This document shows positions 346 to 33,800 of a stretch of DNA of 51,364 nt, piece by piece. Location of the stretch: the IMG/VR virus record IMGVR_UViG_3300030104_002039, positions 1 through 51,364 of that record. One strand, 5' to 3'. Each line of letters opens with the position of its first letter. Positions within the stretch are counted from its first letter, which is position 1. A model generated the notes under the pieces. The model saw only the letters and a list, made by a program, of their open reading frames with translations, did not search any database and was not told the DNA's origin. This DNA comes from a virus. Lineage: Duplodnaviria; Caudoviricetes. The translations under genes and the position numbers were made by a program.

Positions 346-772
346 ACGTAAACGTGGTCCTGTCAGAGCTAAAAAAGTTAGCTTTGATGGGATAACTTTC
401 GCCTCTGGTTTAGAAAAGTATATGTATATAGCTTTAAAAAAAGCTAAAATAAAGTCTAAGTATGAAGGTGAAACATATATAGTTCAAGAAGGTTTTATGT
501 TTAATAATGAAAGTTATGAACGACAAGGTAATGGTAAAGGTGATTTAGTTAATAGAGGTTGTAAAAAAATATTACCTATAAAATACACTCCCGATTTTAT
601 ATCTGATTCATTTATAATTGAATGCAAGGGTAGAGCAAACGAATCATTTCCTTTACGATGGAAAATGTTTAAAAAATATGTAAATGATAATCTAAAACAT
701 GTAACCTTATATAAGCCTCAGAACCAAAAAGAATGTGATAAAGTAGTAGAATTAATTAAAAAAAATAAATGA
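329..772 (+). CDS. T7 endonuclease I-like Holliday junction resolvase
   Basis: FASGLE...YTPDF...IIECKGR matches the endonuclease I PD-(D/E)xK signature. Confidence 0.85.
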   Translation: MKKKYKRKRGPVRAKKVSFDGITFASGLEKYMYIALKKAKIKSKYEGETYIVQEGFMFNNESYERQGNGKGDLVNRGCKKILPIKYTPDFISDSFIIECKGRANESFPLRWKMFKKYVNDNLKHVTLYKPQNQKECDKVVELIKKNK

Positions 773-2643
773 ATAACGACTTAAATAAAAAAATATTATC
801 TGATTTAACTGTGCATATGAAGTACGCTAAATTTATACCAGAGTTAAACAGAAGAGAGACATGGGAAGAATTGGTTACGAGGAATAAAGAAATGCACCAA
901 AAAAGATATCCACAACTAACAGATGAAATACAATTAGCATATAAATATGTTTATGATAAAAAAGTTTTACCATCTATGCGATCGCTTCAGTTTAGCGGCA
1001 AGCCAATTGAGATTTCGCCGAATCGATTATACAACTGTAGCTACTTACCTATCGACCACGTTGATAGCTTTAGTGAGTGTATGTTCCTTTTGCTATCTGG
1101 TTGTGGTGTTGGTTATAGTGTTCAAAAACACCATATAAATTTATTACCTCACATAACAAAGCCTTTTGAAGGAAGAACAAGAAGATTTGTTATTGGTGAC
1201 AGTATTGAGGGTTGGTCAGACTCTATTAAGGTTTTAATCAAGTCTTATTTAGGCTCTAGGAGATCATCTAAGATAAAATTTGATTATTCTGACATTAGAC
1301 CTAAAGGAGCTAGGCTGGTAACTTCAGGTGGAAAAGCTCCCGGGCCTCAACCATTAAAAGAATGTTTAGTAAAAATTAAAGGAATATTAGATGCTAAAGA
1401 AGATGGTGCAAAACTTACAACGCTTGAAGTTCATGATATTGTATGTTATATTGCTGATGCTGTGCTCGCAGGTGGTATTAGACGGGCCGCGCTAATATCT
1501 TTGTTTTCAGCGTATGATGAAGAAATGATATCTTGTAAATCAGGTAATTGGTGGGAGAAAAACCCACAAAGAGGTAGAGCTAATAACTCTGCTGTTTTAA
1601 TGAGACATAAAATAACAAAGGAATTTTTCTTAGATTTGTGGAAACGTATTGAATTATCCGGAGCTGGTGAGCCAGGAATATATTTTAATCATGATAAAGA
1701 TTGGGGAACTAATCCATGTTGTGAAATAGCCCTAAGGCCATATCAATTCTGTAATCTTTGCGAAGTTAATGTAAGTGATATCACAAGCCAAGAAGATCTT
1801 AATGCTCGCGTTAAGGCCGCATCTTTTATAGGCACGCTTCAAGCGGGTTATACGGAATTCCACTATCTAAGAGAAATATGGCAAGAAACAACAGAGAAAG
1901 ACGCACTTATAGGTGTGTCAATGACAGGAATAGGGAGTGCCGCTGTGCTCCAAATGGATATGAAGGTCGCTGCAAGTATAGTGAAAAGAGAAAATACAAG
2001 AGTAGCAAAGCTAATAGGAATAAACAAAGCAGCTAGAACAACATGTGTTAAACCTGCAGGAACAACCTCTCTTGTACTTGGAACTTCTTCAGGTATTCAC
2101 GCTTGGCATAATGACTTTTATATTAGAAGATTACGTGTAGGTAAAAATGAACCTATATATAATTACTTAAAGAAAAATAATCCGGATTTAGTTGCGGATG
2201 AATATTTTAGACCTCATGATACCGCTGTTATTGAAATACCACAATCAGCTCCAAAAGGTTCTATATTAAGAACTGAATCTGCTTTTGACTTACTCAAAAG
2301 AGTTAAACAAGTTGCTACCGAATGGGTTAAACCTGGACACCGTAAAGGTTCTAATACTCACAACGTGTCTGCAACAATAAGTTTAAAAGCAAATGAATGG
2401 GATAAGGCTGGAAAATGGATGTGGGATAATAGAGAGTGTTATAATGGTTTATCAGTACTACCTTATGATGGTGGTAGTTACACTCAGGCTCCGTTTGAAG
2501 ATATAACAAAGCAAGAGTTTAATAAGAGAGTCAAACTCTTAAACGATGTAGATTTATCTAACATTGTTGAAACAACTGACGAAACTGATCTATCTGGTGA
2601 ATTAGCCTGTGCCGGTGGATCTTGTGAAATAACGGGCTTATAA
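769..2643 (+). CDS. nrdJ: Class II (adenosylcobalamin-dependent) ribonucleotide reductase, monomeric RTPR type
   Basis: NPCCEI catalytic loop, CNLCEVN, TTCVKPAGT, GGIRRAALI and a C-terminal CAGGSC redox pair; no adjacent NrdB small subunit. Confidence 0.92.
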   Translation: MNNDLNKKILSDLTVHMKYAKFIPELNRRETWEELVTRNKEMHQKRYPQLTDEIQLAYKYVYDKKVLPSMRSLQFSGKPIEISPNRLYNCSYLPIDHVDSFSECMFLLLSGCGVGYSVQKHHINLLPHITKPFEGRTRRFVIGDSIEGWSDSIKVLIKSYLGSRRSSKIKFDYSDIRPKGARLVTSGGKAPGPQPLKECLVKIKGILDAKEDGAKLTTLEVHDIVCYIADAVLAGGIRRAALISLFSAYDEEMISCKSGNWWEKNPQRGRANNSAVLMRHKITKEFFLDLWKRIELSGAGEPGIYFNHDKDWGTNPCCEIALRPYQFCNLCEVNVSDITSQEDLNARVKAASFIGTLQAGYTEFHYLREIWQETTEKDALIGVSMTGIGSAAVLQMDMKVAASIVKRENTRVAKLIGINKAARTTCVKPAGTTSLVLGTSSGIHAWHNDFYIRRLRVGKNEPIYNYLKKNNPDLVADEYFRPHDTAVIEIPQSAPKGSILRTESAFDLLKRVKQVATEWVKPGHRKGSNTHNVSATISLKANEWDKAGKWMWDNRECYNGLSVLPYDGGSYTQAPFEDITKQEFNKRVKLLNDVDLSNIVETTDETDLSGELACAGGSCEITGL

Positions 2644-6190: not shown

Positions 6191-8596
6191 TTACTTTTTA
6201 ATTAATTGTTTTGTTATTGATTTGTTTTTGTAATTTATTTGTAGTATATAAACACCATTGCTAAACTTAGACATATCTAAAGTGTTTGTATTTGTTTTTG
6301 ATATAATTATATTTCCAATTTGATCATATACGTTTATATCAACATTTTTATTTATATTTACTTTGTTTTTAGTAGGATTTGGGTATATAACTAAATGATC
6401 ATCTAAACTTTGTCTTACTGGTATTGCACCAACCCAAGTGCTATCACAGTAATTATATGTTAGTTGACATATTTCATCCCACTCATTTTCACAACAGTAA
6501 TCATCTACTGAAATAACCCAAGCGTAGCATTCGTCATTAAGCCAGTAAGGATTTCCTGCACCAGTAACGCAACCAGCGTCATATAAACAAGATAAAGTAT
6601 CATTAACATTAGCAGTTGACTCGTAGTTATACGCATTTGGATCCATGCAACCCATAACCACTTCGATGCACGAACCGTTATCCGTGTTAGCAAGTGGATC
6701 AAAGTTAAGAGCTGTACTATCCATACACCCATAAACATAAGAAATACAACTAAAGTCCTCCGTGTTTGCTTGTGAGTTATAGTTAAGCATAGAAGGATCC
6801 GTGCAGCCATATATGTAAGGTATACAAGAATTATTATCACTATTTGCTAAGGGGTTATAATTAAACATGGTTGAATCAGTACATCCAAAAACGTAAGGCA
6901 AACATGATTCATCATCAGTATTAGCTGATGCATCAAAGTTAAACATTGTAGGGTCAGTACACCCATATATAAATGGAACACAACTATTATCATCAACATT
7001 TGCATTAGGATTATAGTTAAAAGCAAGTGGCTGCATACAACCATATATAACACCTATACAACCACCATTGTCTAAATTAGCTAAACTATCGTAATTAAAA
7101 GCTAGACTATCAGTACAACCCCATATAGCTTCCATTTGACAATCACCATTATTATAATCAGCTGTAAAACCTTGAGTGTAATATTCTAAATATTGTGGAT
7201 CAGCACAACCTGGATTATAATAGCAACTACCGTTATCAGTGTTTGCTGTATCGTTATAATTATAAGCTATAGAATCCATACAGCCATAAACGTAAGGAGT
7301 ACATACTGTAGGACAGTTAGGTAGCGCTATATATTTATCTGGAAACAACATTATTCTATCACTCCAAGGATTTGTGCCTCCTGAAGCTATAACAATACCT
7401 TCTGGATTTATTAATTTAAAACCTATTTGATCTATAGTAGCATCAGAACTTGTTTGTGAATAAGCTCTAATTGTAACTGGGTGGTTTGATTTTAATTCTA
7501 AATTTATAATTTCAACAAAAGAACTTGTGTTAGTATAAGGACCGTAAGAATTACCTAGTTGATTTATCATAACATAAGCGCCTAACCAACCATCACCACC
7601 ACCATCTATTAACTCAATAGTATAACTACAAGTATCCTCCATAAGTGGAGTGTTAGCAATAGAATTAAAATCAAACATAGTACTATCCATGCAACCTATC
7701 ACTCTAGGTGTAACACATAGAGCTGGGTTCATTTGGTCAGCAGCTGGATTAAACTCTAAATAAGCTGGGTTAGGACAACCAACAACAGGTATCCAACTAC
7801 AATCTTTCATCACAAACAAATCTGAAGTATCGCTATGTCCAAAATTTAAATTATCACCAGGCGTTAAACTATATATAGTATCACCGCACTCATCTGTAAT
7901 CAAAGCATTACCATCAATACCACCAAAACAAGAGCCACATATACCATCTCCATAAGAATCATATATAATAAATTTTATTGTATCGCCTATAGGTACACAT
8001 ATCGTATTGCTATAAAAGTTACCAGGGCCAATGCTATTAAAAAACCCTTGAGGTATATCATGTAAAACACTATCGTTTTGATTTACAATTTTCATAGAGG
8101 TTTCTCCAGAATAAGTATCTGGCGTAAACTCAATTGTTATAGATGTTTTTGTAGTATCAGCACAATCATCTTGTGGCGGTGGTATAGCTAAACAAACATC
8201 CGGTATGTTAGCTAAAGGATCGTAGTTGTCATAAGAAGGATCCATACAGCCTGAAATACAAGTAAATTCATTAGCATAAACTGTGTCAGTAAAACTTCCA
8301 TCACTCATTTCTAAAACTATCCAAAAACCAGCTGAACTAGCAAACGGATCACCAGGACTATAGTTGTTATAAAAAGAATAATTAGTTAAATTTTGGTCAT
8401 ACCAGTTCCAAGAGTACGTGTTATAAGGTGTTCCTCTATGAATATTATTTATTGTACAACCACTGTCTAAAGGTTGCCACTCTACCCATGTTCTAGCATA
8501 ACCATACATACATGTATCAGTAGATACTAATGTGGGCGCACAGTTTTGTGCAAAACTAAATATTGGTAATAATAATAATAATAATAATTTTTTCAT
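6191..8596 (-). CDS. Secreted Cys-rich repeat protein with a T9SS type A C-terminal sorting domain
   Basis: Signal peptide MKKLLLLLLLPIFSFA|Q; about 12 GC[MT]DxxAxN[YF]xxxAN repeats; C-terminus IYPNPT...VYDQIG...SNGVYILQI...TKQLIKK is a canonical Por/T9SS CTD. Confidence 0.88.
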   Translation of the reverse strand: MKKLLLLLLLPIFSFAQNCAPTLVSTDTCMYGYARTWVEWQPLDSGCTINNIHRGTPYNTYSWNWYDQNLTNYSFYNNYSPGDPFASSAGFWIVLEMSDGSFTDTVYANEFTCISGCMDPSYDNYDPLANIPDVCLAIPPPQDDCADTTKTSITIEFTPDTYSGETSMKIVNQNDSVLHDIPQGFFNSIGPGNFYSNTICVPIGDTIKFIIYDSYGDGICGSCFGGIDGNALITDECGDTIYSLTPGDNLNFGHSDTSDLFVMKDCSWIPVVGCPNPAYLEFNPAADQMNPALCVTPRVIGCMDSTMFDFNSIANTPLMEDTCSYTIELIDGGGDGWLGAYVMINQLGNSYGPYTNTSSFVEIINLELKSNHPVTIRAYSQTSSDATIDQIGFKLINPEGIVIASGGTNPWSDRIMLFPDKYIALPNCPTVCTPYVYGCMDSIAYNYNDTANTDNGSCYYNPGCADPQYLEYYTQGFTADYNNGDCQMEAIWGCTDSLAFNYDSLANLDNGGCIGVIYGCMQPLAFNYNPNANVDDNSCVPFIYGCTDPTMFNFDASANTDDESCLPYVFGCTDSTMFNYNPLANSDNNSCIPYIYGCTDPSMLNYNSQANTEDFSCISYVYGCMDSTALNFDPLANTDNGSCIEVVMGCMDPNAYNYESTANVNDTLSCLYDAGCVTGAGNPYWLNDECYAWVISVDDYCCENEWDEICQLTYNYCDSTWVGAIPVRQSLDDHLVIYPNPTKNKVNINKNVDINVYDQIGNIIISKTNTNTLDMSKFSNGVYILQINYKNKSITKQLIKK
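6590..7290 (-). repeat. Tandem array of about nine ~26-aa GC[MT]D...AN...C repeats in the T9SS cargo gene
   Basis: GCMDSIAYNY, GCADPQYLEY, GCTDSLAFNY, GCMQPLAFNY, GCTDPTMFNF, GCTDSTMFNY, GCTDPSMLNY, GCMDSTALNF, GCMDPNAYNY. Confidence 0.85.
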
Positions 8597-12787: not shown

Positions 12788-15700
12788 CTATCTTTGTATA
12801 ATAACTCTCTTTTTTTTGCTATCCTTTTTAGATTGTTTTTCTTTGTCTTTTTTCTTGTTTTCTTTTTCTTGCTCTTTTAATTTCTTTTTTCTTCTTTTTA
12901 TTTCTTCTTTTGTTTGAAGTAAATCTTGATCTTTAATGCCAAGATCCCAAGTATTCCAACCTAAAAGTAAAGCTATTCTCTGCCAAGTTTCATTATTAGA
13001 ATCCAAAACATTATCTATGTTTAACATTTTGTTAGATATTCTACCAAGAGGCAAATTAGTAACACCTTCTACAACGTTTCCAATAGCGCTCCAAGTTGGG
13101 TTATCTAAAGTAAAACCTCTTTCTTTCATTACTTCTCTATTGTATTTTTCAGTTTGTATAGATGAGTATATTTTTCTAAGCTTAGAGCCAATTGGTGGTG
13201 AAAAGCCAATAGCTTGTAGCAACGTATATGTTTGGTCAGCATTCCAACCTTTATCTCTTTGCTTTTGATATTCTCTTACAGTATTTTTTGCAGCACCAAT
13301 GGCTTTACCGCCGTAACCTATACCCGCTAACCAAGAATCAACCATTCCATTAATTATTCTTTCTTTCTTTTTGTCATACTCTTCTTCGTCTTCATCTCCA
13401 ATAACAGCAAACAAAGCAGATTGCATAGCGCCAAATATTATACTTTGAATAACGCCGTAGTATATTATTTTAGACATATGCGTTTTGTAATCACCTCTAC
13501 GATTTGTAATATCCCTAGCTGCTTTGTTCATTATTCTAGCATATTGCATTGGTGTGTTTTGAAAAGATAATATTAACCTACCAAGTGGAGAGGCTTGTTG
13601 TTGTGATATCATATCAGGCCTTGCTGATTGCTGTGATACTTCTGTAGCTTCTTGAAAATCTAAAAATGCTTTTAACTCAGCGTCTGCTTTTGACATACCT
13701 TGTTTTACATATGAATTAACTCTATTTCTATAAAAACTAGCACCACCAGAAGCAATAGCAAAACTATCCGCAATTTGCGTAGGTAAAAAACCTTTTTTAA
13801 GTAACCAACGTATTACCGCTTTACTTTGCTCATAAGCACCAACGCCTTTTACAGCTTGTGATAATTCAGCTTCATTTATACCTCTTTTGTTACCAGATCT
13901 TCTTTGTTTTAAGAAGTCAGAATTAAATAGCATTGTAAAATCAGACCAAAATTGTTTTTGATTAGCAAAAGCCATACCTGCTTTAAGTGGGTTGTTGTCG
14001 CTCCAATTAATATAGTTAGTAGCAGATATAGTTTGTAGTATTGCAGATCTCATATTAAAGAACATAATAGCACCAACAGAACCGTTAACCCAATTCATAT
14101 ACTCATTCATTATTCTACTATTACCAGTAGGTCTATTTCTACCGTTTTTCATACGATAGATTACATCTTCTAAAGCTTCTCTAAACTTACTACCGTATAT
14201 TGCCTCTATTTTATTTAAGTTTTCTTTAGAGAATATAACATCTACATTTGCTTGCCACTCTTGTAATACTTCCGCTCTACCAGTATCTACAGATTGTTCG
14301 CTTAATAAATCAGAATTAATATTTTCCACAAACCAATATTCACCAGGTTTTGTATAACCCTCTTTCTTTTTAGATATTAAACTTATAGTTTCAGCAAAAG
14401 ATTGTAATTCAGTGTCATTTTTAATAATACCATCTAAAGTTTCTATATTTTTCTTTGATAAACCTGGTATATCAAAACCTGCTTTATTCCACAAGTAAAC
14501 TCTCACGGCTTGGTCATAAGTAAAATCAGTACCAGTTATTTTCTTTTTTAATTTTTTCTTAATTTTAGGTGATTGTTTGAATAAGTTTTTTAAATCATTA
14601 GCTTTAGCTTGTCTAGAACTATTTAACTCGTCTACACCTCTAGCAAAAGGATCAACTAAAGCTTTCTTGAAAAAAGCTAAATCATTTTCACCTTCTTTAC
14701 CCTTGCCTAAAAAGTTGTATAATAATCCCATGAAATCTTGAGCAGATGCTGGTATTATAGATTTATACTTTGTTTTTCTACCGGCCAACTTAGCTTCAAC
14801 ATTGTCAAACTGTTTTTCAGAATCAATACCTGTTACTCTTTCTAATATATCATTAAAGTTTTTACTCATACCCTTGCTAAACTTAGTTTTAGCTTGCTGA
14901 ACCTTAGACTTAACGTCAAATTGTTCTAACATGTTAGCTACAGCTTGTACATTTTGTAAGGCATCATCAGCAAAATAAAAGTCATTGTAGCCCTCACCAA
15001 CTTTTTCAGCCATCCAAAGAGCTTTAGCCTCAGCGGTAGAGTTAGCTAAACCAGTAATGTTTTTTAAAGGTATGTTTAATCCATTAGCTTTTAAGAAAGT
15101 GTGTATTGCTAAAGCTGATTCTTCTGGTCTAGCTGTTAATACAAACATGTCTTTATTACCAAACTTACTTTGTAGTTTTAAAGCTTTATTAAACAACGGC
15201 GCTGTCTTACCTTTTACTACCTTTGTGAATTCAGAAAAATCAAACTCATACCCTTGTCCTAATAGGTCTTCGTAAGTTCTAGCGTATTCCTCAGCGTTCA
15301 ACTTACCTTTAGTGCCATCTGGCCTTGTAAATCTAATTCTAGACTTAGTAGTAGCTAATGTATCATCAAAATCTAAAACAGTAATTCCTTTTGTTTTGGC
15401 TTTAGGGTTACGAGATTGTTTAGTAGCCATATCCATAGTCATTCCTATTTCAGTAGAATTCAACAGTGATTTATTTATCTTGCTTACGAAAGCGTCCATA
15501 TTAGCTTTGTTAGCTAAGTTAAACGATGATTTAGTGGGAAAGTTTGTCTTAGATTTAGAGTCTATAATAGGTTCTATTCTAATTGTAGTTGCATAAGTAT
15601 TACCTTTTGTTGATCTTGGTTTGGAACCAACGTTCATTCTTGATATTAATTCAAAAGTTCCAGTTATATCACCATTTGTATCTTCACCTAACCTAGGTAT

Positions 15701-18700
15701 ACCAAGTTCGTTTGCTATTCTAACGACCATAGCGTTAACGTTAGGATTGCTACCTAACATGTAATATGCTCCAGCCTCGCCAATATTAATGAAATACTCA
15801 GGTATTGCTTTGTTAGTATAATGATACTCTAAATATGCAGCTGTAACAGATTCACTGTGAATAAACATGTTCTTATGTATCATTAAATCTTTACGTTGAC
15901 TAGCATCTACACCTTTTTTGAAATCCATACCAATAAACCTAGGATCATTCATTGTTTCTAAAATCTTTTTCTTAAGGTTGTTTTGTGCTGTTGTATTTGT
16001 TGGGTTTGGATTTGTAGTTGGTCCCTCCCATTTCCAAGTAACAGAAACCGCTCTTGCTGAATCCATTTTTATTTCAAGACCCATAGAAACACCATTGGTA
16101 GTTGTAAAATGAACATCTGGTATACCTCCCTCTCTAACGTATGGGTTTACTACTACAGTTTTTATACCCTTAACTTTAAGTTTTTTTACTGCATTCTCGG
16201 CTAGTTCAATAAAAAATTGCTCGTATATAGTACTAACTTTTAACTTTTTTCTTCCTTTTAATTTGTTTTTAATAAATTTTACTATAGTTTTATTATCTAC
16301 TCTTTCCATACCTCTGTTAACATAAGCATCAACAGTAACGTCTACTATAAATTTACCACCATACTTGTTAGCATCTTTTTCTGACAAGTTTCTATAATAA
16401 TTAATTTTACCTTGATCGTTAAACTCATTATTGTAGTTCCATAAATCATTTAATACTTTTTGTGCACCACTAAAATCTACATAAACTTTATCACCTACTA
16501 TTTTAATAGATCTATTTTTATATGTTACCTTAATATCTTTTCTTCCTTCACTAAATTTAACATTAGGATCTCTTTGTATTGTTCTCGCTAAATTATCTAA
16601 GTCGTTTTGTAATATTTCAACATTGTTTAGTTCAGCTATCTCTTGTCGTTTTTGAACCACGTCAGGTTCTTGAGCTACTTGTAAAATAGCATCGTATGCC
16701 AAAGCACCAGCTATATTTCTAGCTAAAGTATCTTTTCTAGTTCCACGCTTACCAGATCTTTGACCTGTAACAGGGTTAAACGATGGTATATCAAAATAAG
16801 ATAAAAACTCTGCTTCAGTAGGTATTCTTTTTGTATATAAATTCACAGCTTGGCCTTTACCTATTGTAACTAAAGCGCTTTCAGGTAATAAGTTTTGATT
16901 TACTGCTGCTTCAACATCTTCTATGTTTGTAAGTTTTTTAACAAACTTAGTAAATATTTTTTGATCATCTGGTACGTTTCTTTCTAATTGAACTAAATCA
17001 GAAACAAATAAAGAATTCATTATAGGTACTCTAAACTTTTTTAAATTACTAGTATATTGTTTAGTACCTAATAAGTTTTTAATCTCTTTAAATATATAAC
17101 TATTAGCCTGATCTCTTAGTTTTCTTTGTATGTTTCTTGCTGATGTGCCAGTTTCATATGCTTTTAATAAAGCTTGACGTGCTGCATCTAAAACTTTATT
17201 ATACATTTGATCTCCAGTTTCGATACCAAGTTCTTTTCTAAAATCAGACTCTCTTTGAACTTTGTCTTGCTCTTTTTGAGCTTTTTCTCTAGCTCTTGCA
17301 GCAGGAGATATATCTTTCTCTTCAAACTCTTTCATTCTAGAGTCTTCTTCAGCCGCAACTTGAACTTTTACATCACCTTCTTTTGTTCTATCGTCTACGT
17401 CTTTAGCTCTTTTCTCTTGCTCTGTTTTCTTATATATTTTGTTGTAAACATCACCCGCTCTAAATGTAATTCTACCTTGTAAGTAACCAAATAAACTATC
17501 GTTTTCTTCTGGATTAAAGTTCTTTATATCTTTTGTTAATTCTGACATAACATCACTAACAAAATTAACAGGTACTTTATCCGCTTTATATTTAGCGGCT
17601 ATTAAATTATCTAAATAACCTTTTTCTTTTATTTGTTTTATAATACTGTCTACTTCTGCTTGATAAAGAAACTTACCTACACCTTTTTCTCTAAGATTAT
17701 TACCATCTTGATCTACTTTACCAAGCTTATCAATTTGATTTTTTATGTCAGCTTTTTGTTTAGATGTCATAGATCTTTTAGTAACAAAATCTTCTTCACC
17801 TGTTAAACCTTTTTTCTTTCTAGCTTTAATTCTTCTTTTAGCTAGTTTAGGTGCTTTTGTTTTTCCAGGGCTTTCTTGAAAAGACTTTAAAAAACTACCC
17901 ATATAAACAGCAGCGTCTTTATCTGTTTTTATTTTATAATCTTGAGATAAAACATTTGCCCAACTTTGAGAAAGACCTGTTATACTTTTTAAATCATCTT
18001 TTGATGCGTATCTAGTATCTCCAGCTGGAACCATTTGAAATATCTCTTGAACACTTCTAGTATATTCATCAAAAAACCGCTTAGCAAACTGTTCTTTTGT
18101 TTCTGCCCTTGCTTCTTTTTCTGTGTATTTTTTACCAGTTTTTTCGTTTATTGTTCCTTTTTTCAATATATCATTAACAACATAATCTTCTACGTATTTT
18201 GAAGAGTATTCAGGAGTTCCATCGTTATTTAATCTATAGTTTCCAATATTAGATTGTCTACGTATAGCTTCGTCGTGTATTTTTTTAAAATTATTTTTAA
18301 TATAATTATGTAGCTTTTTATTATAATCAAACAAACCAGCTTCGTCAAAAGCTTTAAAATCTAAAGCATGACTAAACTCGTGAGCTATAGCTGTTGCGGG
18401 TAAAATATTACCAGCCTCTAATTGTTTTCTAGCCGCTGTTTCACTTCTAACTATATAAGTTCCTTTAGCCCCATGATTACCTCTAATAAAAGCATTTGTA
18501 GCACCACTAGCAACACTAACAAACATATCGTTTATATTACGTTTATTTATTTCTTTTGCTTTATCTATTTCAATCTTTTTTTGTTCTTTAGATATATCTC
18601 TTGAGTTTATTTCATCTATATCTCTCTGAAGTGAATCTTCATATGCTTCTTTAATTGCTTTTTTAAGCTCTGTATTGTTTTTTGCTGACTTATAGCTAAT

Positions 18701-21700
18701 ACCATCTAAATCTTCATCTTTAAGCATATCTATAATAGCATTGTTCTGCTTAGTAGTCATAACAATTGCTTTGTCTGTTTTAGCCATTGTTAAAGCTCCT
18801 ATTTGTCTATGGATATCGTTTTCTTTTTTTATATCTCTATTTTTTCTTTTTTTACCGTCTTTTGTTTTAGCATTGTCAAATCCACCTGGGCCATATGTCA
18901 TTTCATCAACAAACTGTTCGTTTTCAGGTCTAGTTCTACTTACGGCAACCTGACTATTACCCATTAATCGTTTAAACTCATTATGAACAGCAATAGCCTG
19001 CTCTTTAGGATCAGCGTTTTTTAGATTAGGATTTTTATCTTTTAAACTATTTAACATTATATCAGCATCTTCACCATAAACATCTTTAATTATAGTCATG
19101 TAGTCTTTGCCGCTGTCTAAAATAGATTTTTTAGTTTCTAATGCAGAGTTATAATCTTTCATAAACTTTTTTCTCTTCTCTGGATTTAATCCCTCTGCAT
19201 AATCTTTTAAAAGCTTTTCCTTTTTTTTACTGTCCATAGTAGGGTCAATTCCAGCTTTTGTCAGTAGCTCTTCTTCAAGTTTTCCTGCTATAAGAAGTTG
19301 TTGAAGTTTTTTACCACTTAAACCCATTGCTTTTAGCTCAACCTCACTGTTCACATTAGTTATACTAGAGTTGATTTCACCTAATTGACTTGCTAAAAGT
19401 TTTCTTCTTGCAGGATCTTTCTCATCACGCAGTTCGGCCTTTTTTAACTTGTGTTGTTTAGTTAATTCTTTAAGATATTTTCTTATTGGAGCATTAGCTA
19501 CTTGATTAGTTACTGTAGAGTAAAAAGCACCTGTTCCGTTCATTGGTCCAGCTACTATTGCCGCATTAACAACAACTTCATCCCAATTGCTCATATCAAA
19601 GTCTTTACCAAGAAACGCGACATTACTAAGAGCTTCACCACCATATATAACATATTCCTCAAGTGACTCTAAAGTCATGCCCCCTACAGTAGTAAGAGGC
19701 ATGTTGTAAAGAAAAGCCTTAGTATTACCTCTAGTAACTCTCTCTGCTGTTCTTGCTACTAAATCTTTTCCCCCTATTTGTCTAGCATATTTAACAGATG
19801 GAAGACCACCTATATACCTAACGGCCAAACCTTCAACTATCATAGCGCTAGCTATAGAGGCAGTTTTTTGATACCACTCATAGTCATTTTCTTCTATAGC
19901 CATATCTAGCTCAAGCATTAGATCTTTATACTTTTCTTCTGGTATACCTCCTTTTTGATATGCAGCCGTTAGTTCTTCTTTCGTTTTTTTCCACTCTTCA
20001 ACGTTTTCACTAGCGTTCCATAATTGAATTCTTTTACCACCACCAGCTGGAAGAGCAAATATAGCGCCTTGAGACCACAATACTGTTTTAGCGCTAAGAT
20101 TAAGAGCTGTACCTGTCCCTGCCGTAGCTAAACTAGTAAATACCATAGCATTGTTTTCTGCAAAAGCTTGTTTTGCGTACTCCCATTTTTTACCATGCTC
20201 AATAGCTTGTTTATAAGTTAATTGTGGAAATGATTTTAAATAATCTTGCTCTTCTTGATTGTAAGCTTCTTTAGCACTTTCGCTACCAAAAAGAGCTCCT
20301 ATTTCATAAATTGATTGGCTCCAACTTTTGCCCCAAGCATAATCCTCTTTAGCTTCTGGGTCATAGCTCATATCTAATACTTGTCCTCTATTTCTAAGTA
20401 ATTCTGCTTTTTCTAGGTTTTTATCTCTTATAGTTTTGTACTCTATAAAAGCGGCTTCATATTTATCATAAAGTGTTTCGGCCTCATATTGCCATTTACC
20501 TATTTTTCCAGCGTATTCATATAAAAGTTTTTCTTTTTTAGGATCTATAGATTGTCCTACGTTTGGGTTTTTGTAACTTACTTCCCACACATTGTTAACT
20601 AATTTTAAGTCAAAATCTTCTGCAATAGCGCCGCCAAATATTTCATCTCTTTCCTTGATCTTTAAATTATAATCTTTTAAATATATCTCATTAATAGCTT
20701 TGACATTTTCTTCGTTAGCTCTATCGTTTTCTTTTAACTCCATTACATCTAAAAAATCAACTGTAGCTATTGTGTTTTGAACACTCCTATCTTCAAATTG
20801 AAGTATTTCAGACATGGCTTTTGCACCAACCTTACTCTCAATTCCGGCTTTCTTTATAGTGGCTCTTCTTTTCGTATTTAACGTTTCGTATTGCTCAGGT
20901 GTTATATTACCTTCTAAAGCATACTTAAGCATAAAATCAGTCAAATTAAGACCTTGAACAGTTTCTCCTGAAATAGTACCCACAGCTTTTCTACCGGATA
21001 TATTGTAATTTCTATCTCCTGAAAAAACATAACCCTGAGGGTCTTTACCCGCAAAACCTACGTTATAACTACCATCTCCACTAGCAGCGCCTCTAAAAAT
21101 AACTTCCCCATCTTTTTCAACTACATAATAATTATATGTATCTCCCATTATCATATTTGTGAGTTGTGCCGCATATTTACCTGGCGCTGGACGGTTTCCC
21201 TTTCTTATTGTCAACCCTATATTCTTGTATAACTCTGCTGTTTTATCTACATCTAATAACTCATTATAATCATCAATATCATTACTTTCAAATTTATTAG
21301 CTTTAAAATCAAGGGCTACAGCATGTGCTTGTGGATTTTCTACTTCTGATTTCCTGTAGTCTAATATTTTTTGAATAACTTCTTGCGCTTCTCTTGGATC
21401 ACCACCTATACCAAAAGTACCAGCTTGAAGATTTATTTTAAAATTACCTTCATTAGGAATATGAACCTGTATAGCTTCACCAAGTCCTGTTTGTTCAAAT
21501 CTAATTCCAGTTTGTTGTTCTATATTACCACCAACATCTACTCCAAATAAAGTTTGCATCCACTCGTTTTTAAAGTTTTCTTCAGTCATGTCAGCAACTT
21601 CTTTTGTATTTGTTGTTGCTCCATTAAAGTAATATTCCTTATCTTCTTTACTCATAGGGGTTTTTAAGCCATCTTGCTTTGATATCCAAGTTTTTAAATC

Positions 21701-22351
21701 TTTCCAATTCCTTTGCGCTTCTGGTTTGTCTACGTTAACTTCTAGCGTGTAAAAATTATCTGGATCAACCTCTCCGTTTGGATTGTTAGGTGCAAAAACT
21801 TTTATATAACCATCACCTTCCCATGTACCATCATCAGTAGTAATACCATAATCTCCAAAATACGTTTCAATATTAATCATAGATGTCATCTCGTTTTGAG
21901 ATACTTGCCATCCATCTGTGAATTTATCTTTGTTTAAAATTTCTGATCTAAGAGCCTTATCTCTTTCTGTTTCTTGAAAGTTAACTTTTTCTTCTTCAAA
22001 ATCAAATAGTTTATCAGTTCTTTGTGTTTGCCAAGCTTCTTCATCGAAAGCATCACCCTGAGACTGCCTAAGCTCTTCTTCTTCTCTATCTAACTCAGCT
22101 GTAAATGTTTCTGTAGTATAACCAAGTTCCGCGTGAGATTGTTGCTCTTTACCTAAAAGCTCGTTAAAATAGTTTATTTGCTCAATACCAGGGCCCGATC
22201 CTGTAAACTCTTTATAAGCAACATCAATAGCAGTATCAAAATCTTTTGATAATAAATATTTTACATTACTTTCTAAACTTTCGTTAGAAATATCTGGTGC
22301 AAATTCAGAAAAAAATGCTCTATAAATCTTATCTTTTATTATGTCAGACAT
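12788..22351 (-). CDS. Giant polyvalent virion (ejection/cargo) protein: zincin, sigma70-r2-like, PD-(D/E)xK, HAD and C-terminal helical domain
   Basis: HEFSH (18368-18382); IAAKY...KNFNPEENDSLFGYL; IPDVHF...LEIK; VLDFDDTL/LTAR/FADD. Sits at the end of the ejection-protein operon. Confidence 0.8.
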   Translation of the reverse strand: MSDIIKDKIYRAFFSEFAPDISNESLESNVKYLLSKDFDTAIDVAYKEFTGSGPGIEQINYFNELLGKEQQSHAELGYTTETFTAELDREEEELRQSQGDAFDEEAWQTQRTDKLFDFEEEKVNFQETERDKALRSEILNKDKFTDGWQVSQNEMTSMINIETYFGDYGITTDDGTWEGDGYIKVFAPNNPNGEVDPDNFYTLEVNVDKPEAQRNWKDLKTWISKQDGLKTPMSKEDKEYYFNGATTNTKEVADMTEENFKNEWMQTLFGVDVGGNIEQQTGIRFEQTGLGEAIQVHIPNEGNFKINLQAGTFGIGGDPREAQEVIQKILDYRKSEVENPQAHAVALDFKANKFESNDIDDYNELLDVDKTAELYKNIGLTIRKGNRPAPGKYAAQLTNMIMGDTYNYYVVEKDGEVIFRGAASGDGSYNVGFAGKDPQGYVFSGDRNYNISGRKAVGTISGETVQGLNLTDFMLKYALEGNITPEQYETLNTKRRATIKKAGIESKVGAKAMSEILQFEDRSVQNTIATVDFLDVMELKENDRANEENVKAINEIYLKDYNLKIKERDEIFGGAIAEDFDLKLVNNVWEVSYKNPNVGQSIDPKKEKLLYEYAGKIGKWQYEAETLYDKYEAAFIEYKTIRDKNLEKAELLRNRGQVLDMSYDPEAKEDYAWGKSWSQSIYEIGALFGSESAKEAYNQEEQDYLKSFPQLTYKQAIEHGKKWEYAKQAFAENNAMVFTSLATAGTGTALNLSAKTVLWSQGAIFALPAGGGKRIQLWNASENVEEWKKTKEELTAAYQKGGIPEEKYKDLMLELDMAIEENDYEWYQKTASIASAMIVEGLAVRYIGGLPSVKYARQIGGKDLVARTAERVTRGNTKAFLYNMPLTTVGGMTLESLEEYVIYGGEALSNVAFLGKDFDMSNWDEVVVNAAIVAGPMNGTGAFYSTVTNQVANAPIRKYLKELTKQHKLKKAELRDEKDPARRKLLASQLGEINSSITNVNSEVELKAMGLSGKKLQQLLIAGKLEEELLTKAGIDPTMDSKKKEKLLKDYAEGLNPEKRKKFMKDYNSALETKKSILDSGKDYMTIIKDVYGEDADIMLNSLKDKNPNLKNADPKEQAIAVHNEFKRLMGNSQVAVSRTRPENEQFVDEMTYGPGGFDNAKTKDGKKRKNRDIKKENDIHRQIGALTMAKTDKAIVMTTKQNNAIIDMLKDEDLDGISYKSAKNNTELKKAIKEAYEDSLQRDIDEINSRDISKEQKKIEIDKAKEINKRNINDMFVSVASGATNAFIRGNHGAKGTYIVRSETAARKQLEAGNILPATAIAHEFSHALDFKAFDEAGLFDYNKKLHNYIKNNFKKIHDEAIRRQSNIGNYRLNNDGTPEYSSKYVEDYVVNDILKKGTINEKTGKKYTEKEARAETKEQFAKRFFDEYTRSVQEIFQMVPAGDTRYASKDDLKSITGLSQSWANVLSQDYKIKTDKDAAVYMGSFLKSFQESPGKTKAPKLAKRRIKARKKKGLTGEEDFVTKRSMTSKQKADIKNQIDKLGKVDQDGNNLREKGVGKFLYQAEVDSIIKQIKEKGYLDNLIAAKYKADKVPVNFVSDVMSELTKDIKNFNPEENDSLFGYLQGRITFRAGDVYNKIYKKTEQEKRAKDVDDRTKEGDVKVQVAAEEDSRMKEFEEKDISPAARAREKAQKEQDKVQRESDFRKELGIETGDQMYNKVLDAARQALLKAYETGTSARNIQRKLRDQANSYIFKEIKNLLGTKQYTSNLKKFRVPIMNSLFVSDLVQLERNVPDDQKIFTKFVKKLTNIEDVEAAVNQNLLPESALVTIGKGQAVNLYTKRIPTEAEFLSYFDIPSFNPVTGQRSGKRGTRKDTLARNIAGALAYDAILQVAQEPDVVQKRQEIAELNNVEILQNDLDNLARTIQRDPNVKFSEGRKDIKVTYKNRSIKIVGDKVYVDFSGAQKVLNDLWNYNNEFNDQGKINYYRNLSEKDANKYGGKFIVDVTVDAYVNRGMERVDNKTIVKFIKNKLKGRKKLKVSTIYEQFFIELAENAVKKLKVKGIKTVVVNPYVREGGIPDVHFTTTNGVSMGLEIKMDSARAVSVTWKWEGPTTNPNPTNTTAQNNLKKKILETMNDPRFIGMDFKKGVDASQRKDLMIHKNMFIHSESVTAAYLEYHYTNKAIPEYFINIGEAGAYYMLGSNPNVNAMVVRIANELGIPRLGEDTNGDITGTFELISRMNVGSKPRSTKGNTYATTIRIEPIIDSKSKTNFPTKSSFNLANKANMDAFVSKINKSLLNSTEIGMTMDMATKQSRNPKAKTKGITVLDFDDTLATTKSRIRFTRPDGTKGKLNAEEYARTYEDLLGQGYEFDFSEFTKVVKGKTAPLFNKALKLQSKFGNKDMFVLTARPEESALAIHTFLKANGLNIPLKNITGLANSTAEAKALWMAEKVGEGYNDFYFADDALQNVQAVANMLEQFDVKSKVQQAKTKFSKGMSKNFNDILERVTGIDSEKQFDNVEAKLAGRKTKYKSIIPASAQDFMGLLYNFLGKGKEGENDLAFFKKALVDPFARGVDELNSSRQAKANDLKNLFKQSPKIKKKLKKKITGTDFTYDQAVRVYLWNKAGFDIPGLSKKNIETLDGIIKNDTELQSFAETISLISKKKEGYTKPGEYWFVENINSDLLSEQSVDTGRAEVLQEWQANVDVIFSKENLNKIEAIYGSKFREALEDVIYRMKNGRNRPTGNSRIMNEYMNWVNGSVGAIMFFNMRSAILQTISATNYINWSDNNPLKAGMAFANQKQFWSDFTMLFNSDFLKQRRSGNKRGINEAELSQAVKGVGAYEQSKAVIRWLLKKGFLPTQIADSFAIASGGASFYRNRVNSYVKQGMSKADAELKAFLDFQEATEVSQQSARPDMISQQQASPLGRLILSFQNTPMQYARIMNKAARDITNRRGDYKTHMSKIIYYGVIQSIIFGAMQSALFAVIGDEDEEEYDKKKERIINGMVDSWLAGIGYGGKAIGAAKNTVREYQKQRDKGWNADQTYTLLQAIGFSPPIGSKLRKIYSSIQTEKYNREVMKERGFTLDNPTWSAIGNVVEGVTNLPLGRISNKMLNIDNVLDSNNETWQRIALLLGWNTWDLGIKDQDLLQTKEEIKRRKKKLKEQEKENKKKDKEKQSKKDSKKKRVIIQR

Positions 22352-27894: not shown

Positions 27895-30800
27895 TTATTT
27901 ACTACTTTCTGTTACTTCAGCACCAACTGAAAATAATTCAGCTTTTACCAATGAATTGTTTTTAATGTTTACATCTGCAAAATAACCTAATAAACTAGAT
28001 GTGTTTACAACCTCTGGTTTTACAAACATAGTGTAGGCAGTTACTAATTGTTGGGCTTTAAAAGTATCTACAACTCCCGTTGCAGGGTCGGTTGCAATAG
28101 TTATTGAAGTATCTGTATAATCTAAAACAGTACCTAATTTAAAAAGATCACTAGCTGGGGTTCCAAATAAATTGTTTTGAAGTTGATTCTCACCCAACTC
28201 TACAGTCTCTGTAATATCTTTTAAAGTCATATCTTGTATTTCAACATATGTAGACGTTCCATCACTCCAACCACCTCCATATATAAGAGCCATTACGAAA
28301 AACTGTAGATTAAGAGTACTAGAAAGATTTGCACCTGGAAGGGCTGGTTCGTTAAACGTAAATTGATATGTTGCGGTTTGATTGCTATACATAGGTTCAA
28401 AGTTGATGGTGCTACCACCGCCATGCACGCTAAACGTAACCGCGTTAGGGTCGCCATCAATTACACCACCAATCTTAATATTTCCAGTAGTAATTGTAGC
28501 TTCATATGTGTTTCCATCCACTAACGTGATTTCTGGAGATATTATATTAACGTGGGCTTGCTGGGGAAACGAAAAAGGCAGAAAACCATCGTGATCTAAT
28601 ATTACATTGTTTGGGTTGGACCAATCAACTTGTATCCCTGATGCTAATGTCCCAGCGCTATCTGACCAACCATTAGCTAGCGTCATATTAGGCACTAAGT
28701 CTGGTCCTATTGTTGTTATAGTAGTTTCTAGCGTAGTAGTTGTATAAATTGTATCTCCAATACTAACAGAGCTATTTATGTTATCACTAAAATTAATTGT
28801 AAATTTATTTTGCGAACCTGGGGCTGTTCCACTTTCAAACCCTTCTACGTCTAAAATACTACCAAGACCCTGCGCATTGAAAGAGCCAACATCTATTTCA
28901 GTTGTTACAGTAGAGTTTAATCCTCTTATGTAGTTAAACCATTTCCCTTCTTTTTCTACAAACTCTATTAAACTACCTTCTTGTTTGTTTGTTTTTACAG
29001 TTTCCGTATACCAACCATCGTTGAACTTAGTGTTAAACGCACCAATAGATCTTTCTTCATTAAAAGTAGTGATTATATCTCCAACCTTCCAGTCGTTATT
29101 TTGGGTGGTAAAATAACCAACAGGTCTAGAATCTGTAAAGTCTCCATTTGGATAAAATTGTATTTGTCCGGTAGTAACGTATTGAACAATACCATTAATT
29201 TCTCTATAAACTTTAACGTATGTATCTCCAATATACCAAGGATATGGATCTGAAGTTACTGGTCCTATCATGTCAATAAGTTTATCAATACCTTCTTCAT
29301 TAATTACAAATACATCACCAGCATTAAAACCAGACGTAGCAATATCATTATCTATAACCTTAACATGTCTCAACCCTTCAGTTCTAGCTTGACTACCCTC
29401 ATAGTCTAAAGTATGGAATGTTTTTACGCTTCCAGGATTATCGTTAAACAATAAGTTTACACTAGATTCAGTATACTTATCACGAGCGTTAAGATTATTA
29501 ACACCTGGATCTATAACAACCAAATCACCAACTTGCCATTGACCACTAGCAGCACCAGAATTTGCAAGCCCTGCGGTTGATTGTAAGCCATAATTACCAA
29601 CACCTGGATCTAGCTCTCTTCTACCGTGGGCTAATAGCTGTCCTTGTTCGTTTTCTAAAGCATTACCACTTAATGAGCCAAAAAGAGCCACAGCTCCATC
29701 ATATATTAACTCACCTTTTCTGTATTGTTTTATTTTTGTTATCCAAGTTGACGTCCCACTCCAACCGTCTAGTGTAATAAAAGTTTCAGGATTAAACCAA
29801 AAATATTGACCATTAGTACCAAGAGATGGGTGCGGACCTATATTTTCTACTTCTACAGCATCAAGATAAAAAGTGTTTCTAAGAGAGTTTTCGTTGTGGT
29901 GGTGGTATAATCTACCACTTTTAAGTGTGTAATATTCATTAGCGCAACTAACCGCGTTTTCAGGTGTAAAAGATTTAAAACTAACCCATCCTTTCACATC
30001 TTCTCTAAATGAAACAGTGTCGTTAGTTTCTTGTAACGATATATTGTATTCTTCTTTTTTATCATCATAACTACCTATTAAAGTTTTGTTTAGTTTTAAA
30101 TTATCTCTAAACCAATCTTTCATACCGTGATCAGATATAGGCGTTAAACCATCTCTTGACAATCTTATTACAGCACCTCTAACTTTGTCTGTAAAATAAG
30201 CTCTATAAGCTTCAGATACAAATGATTCTGGATTTTTAGATATACCATATTCACCTACAAAAGGAACTGTTTGTCCTAAGACATTTATATTAGCGGTAAG
30301 TTGAGAATTACCATCAGCATTAAATACAGCATCTTTATTTGCTAGTATTTTTAATATTTTATCTTCACACAAAGCTAGTATATCTGAATCTCTTGAGTGA
30401 AGCTTTTGTATACTACCGTATATAGGATTTACATCTTTTGTTATTTTATTAGCGGCAATAAATTGATTTAAACCGTTTTCACCACTAATAGAGTTATATA
30501 TACCAGAAAATATTAATCCGTATTTTCTATGTTCTTCCTTGTAAGGATCAAAAGTTGTAGAAACCTTAGCACCGTTTGTTAAAGTTTGTAAATTAAAAGA
30601 ATCTCTTATTCTATCTGACTCAACACCATTACCAAATGAAATGCAATTATACCAAGATAACTCGTGCTCGGTATCTTGATTATAGAGACTTTCGTTTATA
30701 TAAATACCAGCTCCACCAGACGGGATTCTACCATCACTTATGTTTGTAGCGCCCCACCAACCAGTAACCGTTAGAGATACTGATTGTCCAGAGATTGAAG

Positions 30801-33800
30801 TTATTTTAATTTGATCACCAACGTTTATATACTGACCTCCAACTATAGGATCTAATAGTGGATCACCAAACTTATTATTAATTTCTAAATAATAACCACT
30901 AGTACCACTCGGCCAAGAGGTGCCAACCGGCGAACTATGATAGCTTAGTTTATAAAACCTGTTTAAAGAATTAATTGAGTTTGCGTTTTGAACATGTGCT
31001 ATTGCCGAACCACGAGGAATTGCGTTTTCGTAATTTTCTAAATTTAATTTGATTGGTATCGCGTTACTAGCTTCGTAATATAGGTCAATATCAGTTGTAG
31101 TTTCTTTAGGCTCTGTTTCCCATATAGCTGGGTTGGTTGGCATTTCAGGTTCAGCATCTATTTCTTCTAAAAACTCTATTTCATAACCAACAGCTCCAAC
31201 ACCTGGATCACTTAAACTGAAACCTTGTTGATCTTGGTCTTGTGCGTTAATTCTATTTACAGAATATTGACTATATCCATTCATAGCGGCTTGTTGGAAT
31301 ATAATTTGCTGTGCAGTGTTTATCGCTGTGCCACCTGCCCTCATTGATTCATGAGCGTAGAATCTTATAGGAGTACCTTTGTAGGTACCCATATCACTGT
31401 ACAAACCACCCGTAGTTCCATATGAAAAATTAGGTTCTCTATATCCAATAAGTCTTAAGTCATAATTATTACCAACAGGAACAATTCTATGTACTAAAAG
31501 TTCTTGATGACTGTTACTGCCATCTAAACTAACACCACCGTTGTTATAACTGGTCATTATCATACCTTCAGATATATCTCTTGATCCAAAAACAGGATCT
31601 GTGCAGGTTAAACTACTTAGTCTTAATACTAAATGTGTAGTATAAACCGTAGCGCTAATAGCGTTGGTAGTGGGTAAATACAAACCATTTGGTATTGGTC
31701 CTAAAGTACCACCATTAGTAGGATCCCAGTTCATCGTTTTAGTTCCACTAGAGTTTCTATAAGGAAGATCCCAAGTAACAGAAGTGTTTGTGCTAAGTTG
31801 AGCTAAAACTTGTGTTTGGTCCCCGTGGTAAATACTTGTTGTCTGCCCAGATAATGGCCAATCGCCACTTGAATAAGCTCTTGCATAAGGAAATTCCGTT
31901 GAACTATGTCGGAAGGGCCTCCAAAGTTTTTGACCCGTTTGTATTGTGTAAACCTCTCTAGTTGGGTCATCTTTCCATCTAAACTTAGAACCTGGATAAA
32001 ACTTATTAACTAATTTTACTATACCATCATGCTGGTAGTTTGGATTTTCACCATATACATCATAATGACCAACTCCAAAAACACCTTGAACAGCAACACC
32101 ACCCGCGCTAGTTGATCCATAAGTAGAGTAACCAACGTCTTCATAATAAATACCACCCATACCAATGTTTATTTTACCATTAGCAGTGTCTATGCCGGGA
32201 CGTTGACCTTGATTAGGGGAAGTGTACTGCCAATGTATACCAGGGTCGTATCTATATCCTTCATATTTCCCTTTGTCAATAAACCATACTTCGCCTTTTT
32301 CTTGCTCCATTTTAGAGTTGAACTTTCCAGCTCTTTCAGAAGCAGTATAGCCACTACCATCTGCTATTTTAGCCTTAGCTTTTATATTAAAACCTGTGTT
32401 ACCAAATAAAGCAGCACCTGTTCCAGGATCTACACATGCGTATGTTGGATCAGTATCACCGGCAGGCTTATAGTAACCCATATAAGTATCATTTATAGGC
32501 GTGGTAATATAAGTTATTTCAAACTTCCAATCATTTGTGTCGTTTCCAAATCTATATTGACCAGCATGTTTTTCAGTAGTACTAGCGGGTAAGGCTATAT
32601 TTGATGGGACTAAGTTGTTACCATCGTATGGCGTAATAGCATCATATAGTTCTTCACTGCTTTCTGTGTATTCATAATTTCTAAAAAACGGAGCAAATCT
32701 ACCAAAATGATTATCTCTTTGAACAACAGTACCACTATCAATACCAATACCCGTTATCCATGTAAAATAAGAATCGTCATTTCCTGAAACTGGATTAAAA
32801 GTTGCTATACCACCACCGTTGCTAACATGTTGGTAAACGGAGTCATCGTGGTACGCCCCATGTCTTTGTCCTGTTACGTTGTGAGAATGCTTAATGTTAT
32901 GATCTGTTCCGTTCATAAAATATAACTTCCTAGTTTTTGCTACCCTATACTCTTCTTCAATAACACTTTTAACAGCAATTTCACCATTAAAAATATCATC
33001 ATTATTTATTTTAACAAAAAATCTACCAGTAAACTCTTTTGTGTTTTCAACACTATATCTATATACACAAAATGAAATACCGTTTTCAACAGCTGTTGGA
33101 TTTGACGAATTATTTACAATAAAACTAACGTCACCTTCAAAGGGTTTTTCTGTAATAAAACTATAATAAGCAGTACCAGCTCCCGCCGAAAGACCATCCC
33201 AATCAGTTGTTACAGAGGAAACTCTATATCTATTAGACGTAATACCGTTTGTTTTATCTTCAAACTCTATATATAATAACCCTTCTTCGTTATGTAAATC
33301 AGACCCTGTGCTTTGGAAAAATGGTTGGTATTTTAACTTAAATACATTTACACCTACTAGTGGAGCATCGTCTATATCGTCTGCAAACACATCAAATTGA
33401 GTTCCACTTTGTGTTGTGTCATGCGTTTTGGATTCTATTTTTAATTTTTTATACTTTATGTCTTCTGGGGCTTCATTTTCTATAGCTAATACTTTGTACC
33501 GAGCTTTTTGTATAATTTGATCATTAGATTCTAAACCCTTTTTTAATATTAAAAACGTATCTAAATCTATTTTATTTCTTTCAGAAGATGGGAATGTTAT
33601 CCAAACGTTATTGTCACCAGCATCATAAAAACGGTCCATAGCCATGTTATAGTATTCGCCAGAAGTTTCTTTTACAAAAAACTTCATATACTCCATGTTT
33701 AGTGGATAATTATCGTTGTTAAAACTTACAACAAGTTTATTTTGGTTTTGAGATTCATCTTGTTCAACCGCATCAACAAATGTCTCGTTAGATATAACAG

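Follow-up and report, generated by a model that had tools for sequence, protein, structure and literature searches.

Does a very large phage protein that joins several unrelated domains act as one chain, or is it a polyprotein that is cut apart at the borders of these domains? This question is raised by a stretch of 51,364 nucleotides from a virus of the Caudoviricetes (Duplodnaviria; IMG/VR record IMGVR_UViG_3300030104_002039), the full length of which is referred to here as the window. It carries a minus-strand open reading frame (ORF; positions 12788-22351) for a giant protein of 3187 amino acids (P0001), which combines several unrelated effector-type domains in a single chain and in this respect corresponds to the polyvalent proteins. 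The initial annotation read it as a self-cleaving polyprotein with a zincin metallopeptidase motif and K-x-S sites at its domain boundaries, and it had placed these elements exactly: the motif HEFSH (residues 1324-1328; 18368-18382) is followed by K1525-R-S (site 1; 17771-17779), K1932-F-S (site 2; 16550-16558), K2311-Q-S (site 3; 15413-15421) and K2490-F-S (site 4; 14876-14884), with all coordinates inside this gene referring to the minus strand.

The same annotation proposed to check whether [KR]-[FYRQ]-S is conserved at the junctions of swapping domains. Modules are indeed exchanged among the relatives of the giant protein and a motif is kept between them, but in aligned junctions the family-wide conserved core is [VIL]-K-F-S-[KR]-[ST] and not K-x-S. 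We consider it probable that this junction motif is a cleavage site, whichever enzyme cuts there; to the reading in which the zincin of this polyprotein itself processes the chain at the motif we give a little less than an even chance.

A conserved motif at the borders of exchangeable modules

A homologue search with the giant protein matched 1,494 proteins, all of them from marine or other metagenomes; the best 119 of these were compared in detail, and a further sample of 80 IMG/VR loci, 79 of them usable, was added. With a profile of the zincin part, 1,419 clusters at 50% identity were found, 72 near-full-length representatives of which served as a less redundant set. The relatives share the block of residues 1525-1932, with domain A (residues 1528-1931; 16559-17770), in all cases, and nearly all of them contain the part from residue 2311 onward. 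The intervening nuclease module (residues 1935-2310; 15422-16549) occurs in roughly half of them and is absent or replaced in the others, and in five relatives residue ~2493 is followed by an additional module.

The sites lie at domain boundaries, as had been proposed. Among the 247 internal ends of BLAST high-scoring segment pairs obtained with 119 homologues, 117 fall within ±10 amino acids of the four sites (29, 43, 38 and 7 at sites 1 to 4, respectively), windows that make up 4.4% of the interval scored. The domain borders of an AlphaFold2 model of residues 1500-2540 (34-row alignment; mean predicted local distance difference test, pLDDT, 72.8) coincide with the sites as well. Site 1 directly precedes the first helix of the next domain and follows a stretch with a pLDDT below 50, site 2 is located immediately N-terminal of a disordered stretch (model residues 437-456), site 3 is found at a fraying helix end (pLDDT 62-66) eight residues N-terminal of the first strand of the HAD domain, and site 4 lies within a region with a pLDDT below 50 (model residues 983-1041); values below 60 thus occur in or beside sites 1, 2 and 4. 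Domain A contains a long charged loop of its own with a pLDDT below 50 (residues 1646-1689; 17285-17416) in which no junction motif is present, so disorder alone does not bring the motif with it.

Of 138 distinct contexts from proteins and IMG/VR loci, 123 retain the Phe-Ser pair of the motif at site 2 and 133 at site 4, the exceptions being FH, FA, FT, LS and AS. The Lys residue gives way to Q, M, N, D, L, V or R in about one fifth of the cases. The pair is near-invariant in the alignments A1, A3 and A4, with Ser as the most conserved residue. Within the giant protein only sites 2 (NVKFSE) and 4 (AKTKFSKG) are canonical, and the other two carry degenerate forms of the motif at positions homologous to those of the relatives: TKRSMT at site 1 represents a variant shared by many relatives, K-[KR]-S-[MLIV]-[ST], and a degenerate member of the class K-[FKRL]-S-[KMLIV]-[ST], and TKQSRN at site 3 aligns with K-F-S-R-S of other family members. 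The generic triplet K-x-S is depleted in the giant protein (10 observed versus 18.9 ± 4.0 in 2000 shuffles), and four of the ten copies are at junctions; K2038-V-S, for instance, is part of the nuclease fold. As for [TV]K[RFQ]S, four copies are present versus 0.28 expected, a count that carries little weight by itself since the pattern was defined post hoc.

Relatives with 840-1000 amino acids between sites 2 and 3 contain extra copies of the motif, often as tandem pairs 10-27 residues apart; one of them, P0119, has copies at 1104/1131, 1701/1717, 2079/2102 and 2281. Likewise, a duplicated ...QQAKVKFSK flanks modules that are inserted after the HAD domain. When the variable segments of the relatives, that is, those interiors that do not align to the giant protein, were searched downstream of the HExxH motif, 25 copies of the strict junction motif were counted in 35,398 residues versus 0.047 expected, and none of 300 shuffles contained as many; upstream of HExxH, a single copy was present in 95,218 residues (0.06 expected). 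The same polarity is seen with the form [VIL]xFS[KR][ST] in the 72 representatives: no copy upstream of HExxH (0.32 expected) and 79 copies downstream (1.28 expected). For the copies in variable segments, we estimate four or five additional distinct types of junction. Elsewhere in the window, the strict motif does not occur in any of the 35 remaining ORFs, including those for the capsid, portal and scaffold proteins.

Two trivial causes of this conservation can be set aside. A recombination signal at the level of the DNA is ruled out by the codons used for the motif Ser, which at 128 sites are split between TCN (65) and AGY (63), and this split indicates selection on the protein; a compositional artefact is ruled out by the N-terminal parts of the same proteins, in which the motif is not enriched. 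Sites 2 and 4 also vary jointly. Phe is preceded by Lys at both sites in 97 pairs and at neither site in 18, and the two sites disagree in 23 (Fisher p = 5e-8, uncorrected for phylogeny), which fits one reader for both sites.

Some further observations concern site 4 and its surroundings. Twenty-four residues past this site, relatives possess a conserved KKRFSxxK, at which position the giant protein has EKQFDNVEAK (~residues 2510-2519; 14795-14824); this could be a second site that was lost in the giant protein, or it could be part of the C-terminal fold. Three shorter database proteins (P0202, P0240 and P0242; 914-945 amino acids) begin a short distance N-terminal of the HAD module, and their site 4 is decayed (KSSK, NSEAS, KMSKS), but others of approximately 914-945 amino acids retain it; such short proteins, with starts near sites 3 or 4, may be complete genes or cut ORFs. 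Locus L038 (7772-14906) was considered as a natural gene split at a junction and rejected, because its break lies inside the HAD module, not at the motif, and the coding sequence resumes in another frame; a frameshift or a fault in the assembly probably accounts for the interruption, and in the closely related L039 the gene is intact.

A putative zincin domain upstream of the junctions

The junctions are preceded along the chain by a variable N-terminal part (residues 1-1200; 18752-22351), which lacks the junction motif and has hardly any homologues among the 119 proteins compared, and by a putative zincin domain of the gluzincin type (~residues 1230-1500; 17852-18664). HExxH is present as a single copy in 118 of 118 proteins, in 79 of 79 usable loci and in 69 of the 72 representatives, the remaining three of which have two copies. 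It usually lies 125-190 residues N-terminal of site 1. Its residues H1324, E1325 and H1328 are invariant in all 72 aligned sequences, and a Glu residue approximately 65 positions further on, which may provide the third metal ligand, is found in 71 of them.

In the structural model of this domain, HExxH lies in one helix (model residues 115-131) and the Glu column in another (model residues 183-195), and two short strands precede them, an arrangement that agrees with the zincin core described in section 8 of the article on polyvalent proteins with the accession PMC5512222. In the Atlas, LPD23, LPD1 and ART-PolyVal are found in the named clusters closest to the zincin part; these are weak leads. 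A predicted complex of the domain (residues 20-305 of alignment A2) with a 50-residue peptide spanning site 4 (from alignment A4) received a score of 0.00, which counts neither for nor against recognition of the motif. The assignment as a putative zincin is one made from sequence motifs.

The modules of the chain

The first ~115 residues of domain A (model residues 33-153) resemble region 2 of sigma factors. At least 12 of the 50 listed structural matches are sigma region 2 chains, with Z scores of 5.7-7.1 that are within the range common for helical domains, and among the matches listed they are the only chains whose alignments fall on these residues. Sigma70 is absent among the 17 Pfam families matched by 34 members at E ≤ 0.1, and the sigma likeness accordingly stays a lead.

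Residues 1935-2310 are supported by motifs and by the predicted fold as a PD-(D/E)xK nuclease with a HhaI-like fold. All 34 sequences share the residues E2044, D2079, E2093 and K2095, and the top structural match among 48,161 chains is the restriction enzyme HhaI (6uke_X; a moderate Z of 8.9, root-mean-square deviation 3.5 Å over 173 residues; model residues 539-796).

The following module (residues 2314-2489; 14885-15412) is supported in the same manner as a HAD phosphatase akin to the 3'-phosphatase of the phage T4 enzyme Pnkp. It has a DxDxT motif at residues 2327-2331, of which D2327, D2329 and T2331 are invariant, as are the Thr of 'LTAR' and the 'DD' motif. Its model matches the phosphatase of T4 Pnkp (5uj0_B, Z 8.1, root-mean-square deviation 3.2 Å over 118 residues; 1ltq_A, Z 7.8) and Pnkp1 of an RNA-repair complex (4xrp_A, Z 7.8), and this part of the chain also gives a weak match to PHROG 415 (E 0.0013). 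In three relatives (P0142, P0214 and P0238), a P-loop kinase (Pfam AAA_33 / Zeta_toxin, above the cut-off) is inserted approximately 30 residues after the DxDxT motif, which by its sequence gives a predicted kinase-phosphatase of the Pnkp type; the loci L002 and L005 carry an insertion of approximately 200 amino acids at the same point.

The C-terminal domain (residues 2493-3187; 12791-14875) is the most conserved part of the protein (650 residues with a mean column identity of 61%), and no family or solved structure was matched by it in Pfam or in a profile search of the Protein Data Bank (PDB). The only strongly hydrophobic segment of the giant protein (residues 2962-2986) is located here.

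Searches that covered larger parts of the chain gave little. Pfam and PHROGs yielded nothing significant for the whole giant protein apart from one weak polynucleotide-kinase hint in PHROGs on the HAD part. None of the LPD or MPTase-PolyVal models of Pfam was listed for the whole protein at E values up to 1, or for the members of alignments A2, A3 and A5 at E values up to 0.1 (25 largest families listed for A2 and A5). PDB profile searches with alignments A3 and A5 returned nothing relevant, Foldseek found no PDB match with E ≤ 0.001 for the model of residues 1500-2540, and Pfam matched no family for the swapped modules of the long-insert relatives P0119, P0069 and P0052.

As to the domains that the initial annotation had recognized, the nuclease and the phosphatase are upheld by motifs and fold, and the sigma likeness has turned out to be weaker. 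Its zincin is borne out as far as HExxH occurs in every relative examined, just upstream of site 1; structure searches did not confirm the fold.

Gene neighbourhood

The contig has a G+C content of approximately 33%, and the majority of its genes are on the minus strand. A co-directional block of virion genes starts with the gene for the large terminase subunit (44782-46995), is transcribed on the strand of the giant ORF, and continues with those for the portal (42356-44776) and for a virion structural protein of 481 amino acids (39684-41129), all identified with PHROGs, which classify several further ORFs of the window as 'virion structural proteins'. The giant ORF is the penultimate large gene of this block. 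The nearest groups to the 481-residue protein in tblastn searches are the Maribacter phage Panino (45.6% identity), the 'elemo' podophages of Flavobacterium (38.9% identity) and Cellulophaga phages. The source of the DNA is an uncultured marine podovirus, the host of which is probably one of the Flavobacteriia.

In the Maribacter phage Panino, the position of the giant gene is occupied by an ORF of 1829 amino acids (L001:31774-37263), annotated in GenBank as 'tRNA methyltransferase'. BLASTP detected no similarity between the two proteins, and the Panino protein, which can be regarded as a negative control, contains neither HExxH nor the junction motif and matches no Pfam family at E ≤ 0.01. 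From the position of its gene in the virion block, and by analogy with this giant gene at the same place in Panino, we infer that the protein under study is packaged and ejected.

A second giant ORF of the window (27895-36456, minus strand; 2853 amino acids) matches PHROG 14478, 'virion structural protein', with an E value of 4.5e-123 and lacks the junction motif. An ORF of 801 amino acids (6191-8596, minus strand) carries at its C terminus a sorting domain for type IX secretion (Pfam Por_Secre_tail, E 2e-11, exceeding the curated cut-off), here an export signal specific to Bacteroidota on a phage protein. A GroES-like co-chaperonin (47224-47805, minus strand; PHROG 13932) and a ribonucleotide reductase (769-2643, plus strand; PHROG 367) are also encoded.

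Is the chain cleaved, and by what?

In the mechanism that we envision, the chain would consist, in this order, of the variable N-terminal part, the zincin-like HExxH domain, the sigma-region-2-like domain, the PD-(D/E)xK nuclease, the Pnkp-like phosphatase and the conserved C-terminal domain, with [VIL]-K-F-S-[KR]-[ST] serving as a proteolytic processing site between the modules past the zincin. The entire chain would enter the capsid, so that all modules could travel on one packaging signal, and it would be cut into separate proteins inside the head or after ejection, most likely by the zincin that it contains. The candidate scissile bond is K|F, which would place Phe at P1'. HExxH peptidases usually prefer hydrophobic residues in the S1' pocket, and cleavage at this bond would fit that preference. 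The freed pieces may then act as early effectors, namely a sigma-like factor, a nuclease and an RNA-end phosphatase. In its most far-reaching form this scenario concerns giant virion proteins that marine podoviruses encode, a family with more than 1,400 members in which the zincin cuts the motif and releases a sigma-like factor that redirects the host RNA polymerase, a nuclease, a Pnkp-type RNA-repair phosphatase and swappable effectors, in which new effectors are acquired through recombination between motif copies, and which would represent the first 'ejected polyprotein' of a phage with a readable cleavage code; taken together, this full set of claims is in our view unlikely to hold.

For the narrower reading, processing at the motif by the zincin of the same chain, the argument is one of simplicity: independent modules, a linker motif under selection at the level of the protein and the restriction of this motif to the region downstream of a universal HExxH are most simply explained in this manner. 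Several points weigh against it. The giant protein itself is the sole exception at the conserved Glu column, where it has D1389, preceded by E1388 (18185-18190), a difference that could reflect a register shift or a weakened enzyme, and its sites 1 (KRS) and 3 (KQS) lack the Phe residue. The zincin model has a mean pLDDT of only 64; for this model, Foldseek found no PDB match with E ≤ 0.001 and VIA-align returned helical hairpins alone (Z < 6, residues 1-99) and no peptidase, a PDB profile search with the zincin alignment A2 retrieved no peptidase and nothing relevant, and Peptidase_M78 matched a small fraction of the representatives (5 of 72, best E 4.8e-5). The variable segments in which the motif was counted are often homologous to one another, so these counts are not independent events. 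The contig lacks a terminal repeat and is perhaps incomplete, and a gene for another protease could therefore sit outside it. The virion RNA polymerase of phage N4, a polyvalent protein that bears a zincin, is packaged uncut, as described in section 8 of PMC5512222. Finally, tblastn of residues 1118-3187 against 50,697 phage records found no match, no cultured relative is available, and megablast of the giant gene against GenBank phages found none either, abundant as the family is in metagenomes.

The N4 precedent also speaks for a reading in which the motif is an uncut linear motif, either a docking, packaging or ejection signal or a site of Ser modification, and in which the chain stays intact while the zincin acts on host proteins or on the envelope. 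An envelope-degrading role has been proposed for the metallopeptidase of the phage phi24B protein gp47 in a preprint, and the invariant Ser of the motif could be a modification site. We regard this main rival as a possible but rather unlikely explanation, given that the motif occurs exactly at junctions and often in tandem with short spacers, which is the classic layout of polyprotein sites, that it is confined to the region downstream of a protease-like domain, and that the other virion ORFs lack it. If the motif is cut, the enzyme need not be the zincin; it could be a protease of the host, or a phage protease that is encoded outside the contig or was not recognized. A prohead protease cuts head proteins in T4 and phiKZ-like phages, the contig lacks replication genes as well as a terminal repeat, and both the failure of structure searches to confirm the zincin fold and the Asp of the giant protein in the Glu column would be compatible with such an arrangement. 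Yet neither a prohead protease nor any other protease family was found with PHROGs and Pfam among the 28 ORFs of the window that were scanned, the interval between the portal and capsid genes is taken up by an acidic, scaffold-like ORF and not by a protease, the capsid, portal and scaffold proteins lack the motif, and neither the strict polarity of the motif relative to the zincin nor the presence of the latter in all relatives would be explained. We thus judge cleavage by another protease to be quite unlikely.

Two further explanations carry far less weight. Nup98 and PIDD cleave themselves at H-F-S motifs by an N-to-O acyl shift, and the invariant F-S core with its most conserved Ser might be taken to indicate protease-free self-cleavage of the same kind at the F-S bond; systems of this type need a dedicated upstream fold and a His before Phe, but here Lys is found at this position and the domains that precede the motif (domain A, the HAD domain and various inserts) are unrelated to one another, which renders this route very improbable. 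That the K-x-S triplets are a chance product of a sequence rich in Lys and Ser would agree with the lack of enrichment of the generic triplet and with a pattern that was set after the sequence had been viewed; the conservation, reuse and polarity of the junction motif across hundreds of relatives contradict it, and we consider the probability of this explanation to be negligible.

Relation to known systems and significance

Autoprocessing of polyvalent proteins by zincins was proposed in general terms by Iyer, Burroughs, Anand, de Souza and Aravind in 2017 (PMC5512222), an article whose abstract and section 8 name no cleavage-site motif. A description of the junction motif or of the present family was not found in the full-text literature covered, to which the figures and supplements of PMC5512222, which could bear on this point, did not belong. 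With the polyvalent proteins described in the covered parts of that article, the giant protein shares its size and multi-domain architecture, an HExxH motif beside effectors of the nuclease and phosphatase type, extensive shuffling of modules and the proposed autoprocessing; it differs from them in matching no LPD or MPTase model of Pfam and in possessing a defined junction motif with strict polarity. The N4 virion RNA polymerase (PMC5512222) and gp47 of phi24B, a polyvalent virion protein of 2811 amino acids for which the part of the 2026 preprint considered here contains no processing data, are likewise very large cargo proteins of podovirus virions with a metallopeptidase domain; no similarity between their sequences and that of the giant protein was detected, and no RNA polymerase domain was seen in the latter.

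Other parallels are functional ones. The polyproteins processed by picornavirus 3C-type proteases also combine, within one chain, a single protease domain with one short consensus that recurs at the borders between domains, but the present case concerns a tailed DNA phage, a putative metallopeptidase and candidate virion cargo, known from sequence alone. Packaged and ejected proteins of phages are trimmed by prohead proteases at a short consensus (L/I-x-E for gp21 of T4, S/A/G-x-E in phiKZ and SPN3US). The giant protein would resemble these substrates if it is packaged as its gene position suggests, although no prohead protease was found among the ORFs scanned here and the capsid, portal and scaffold proteins lack the motif. 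T4 Pnkp offers a parallel for the HAD module, which aligns to the phosphatase part of that enzyme, and some relatives possess the P-loop kinase insert; the giant protein itself lacks a kinase, and its phosphatase is a module of a giant chain.

With its conserved putative cleavage site, well-defined borders between modules and a putative catalytic residue that can be mutated, this family makes the autoprocessing proposal of 2017 testable at the bench. If the proposed processing is true, the motif could serve to divide giant phage proteins that lack annotation, of which there are thousands, into their functional units, and the family would show podoviruses co-packaging and delivering, by means of a single packaging signal, a set of early effectors, among them perhaps a sigma-like factor.

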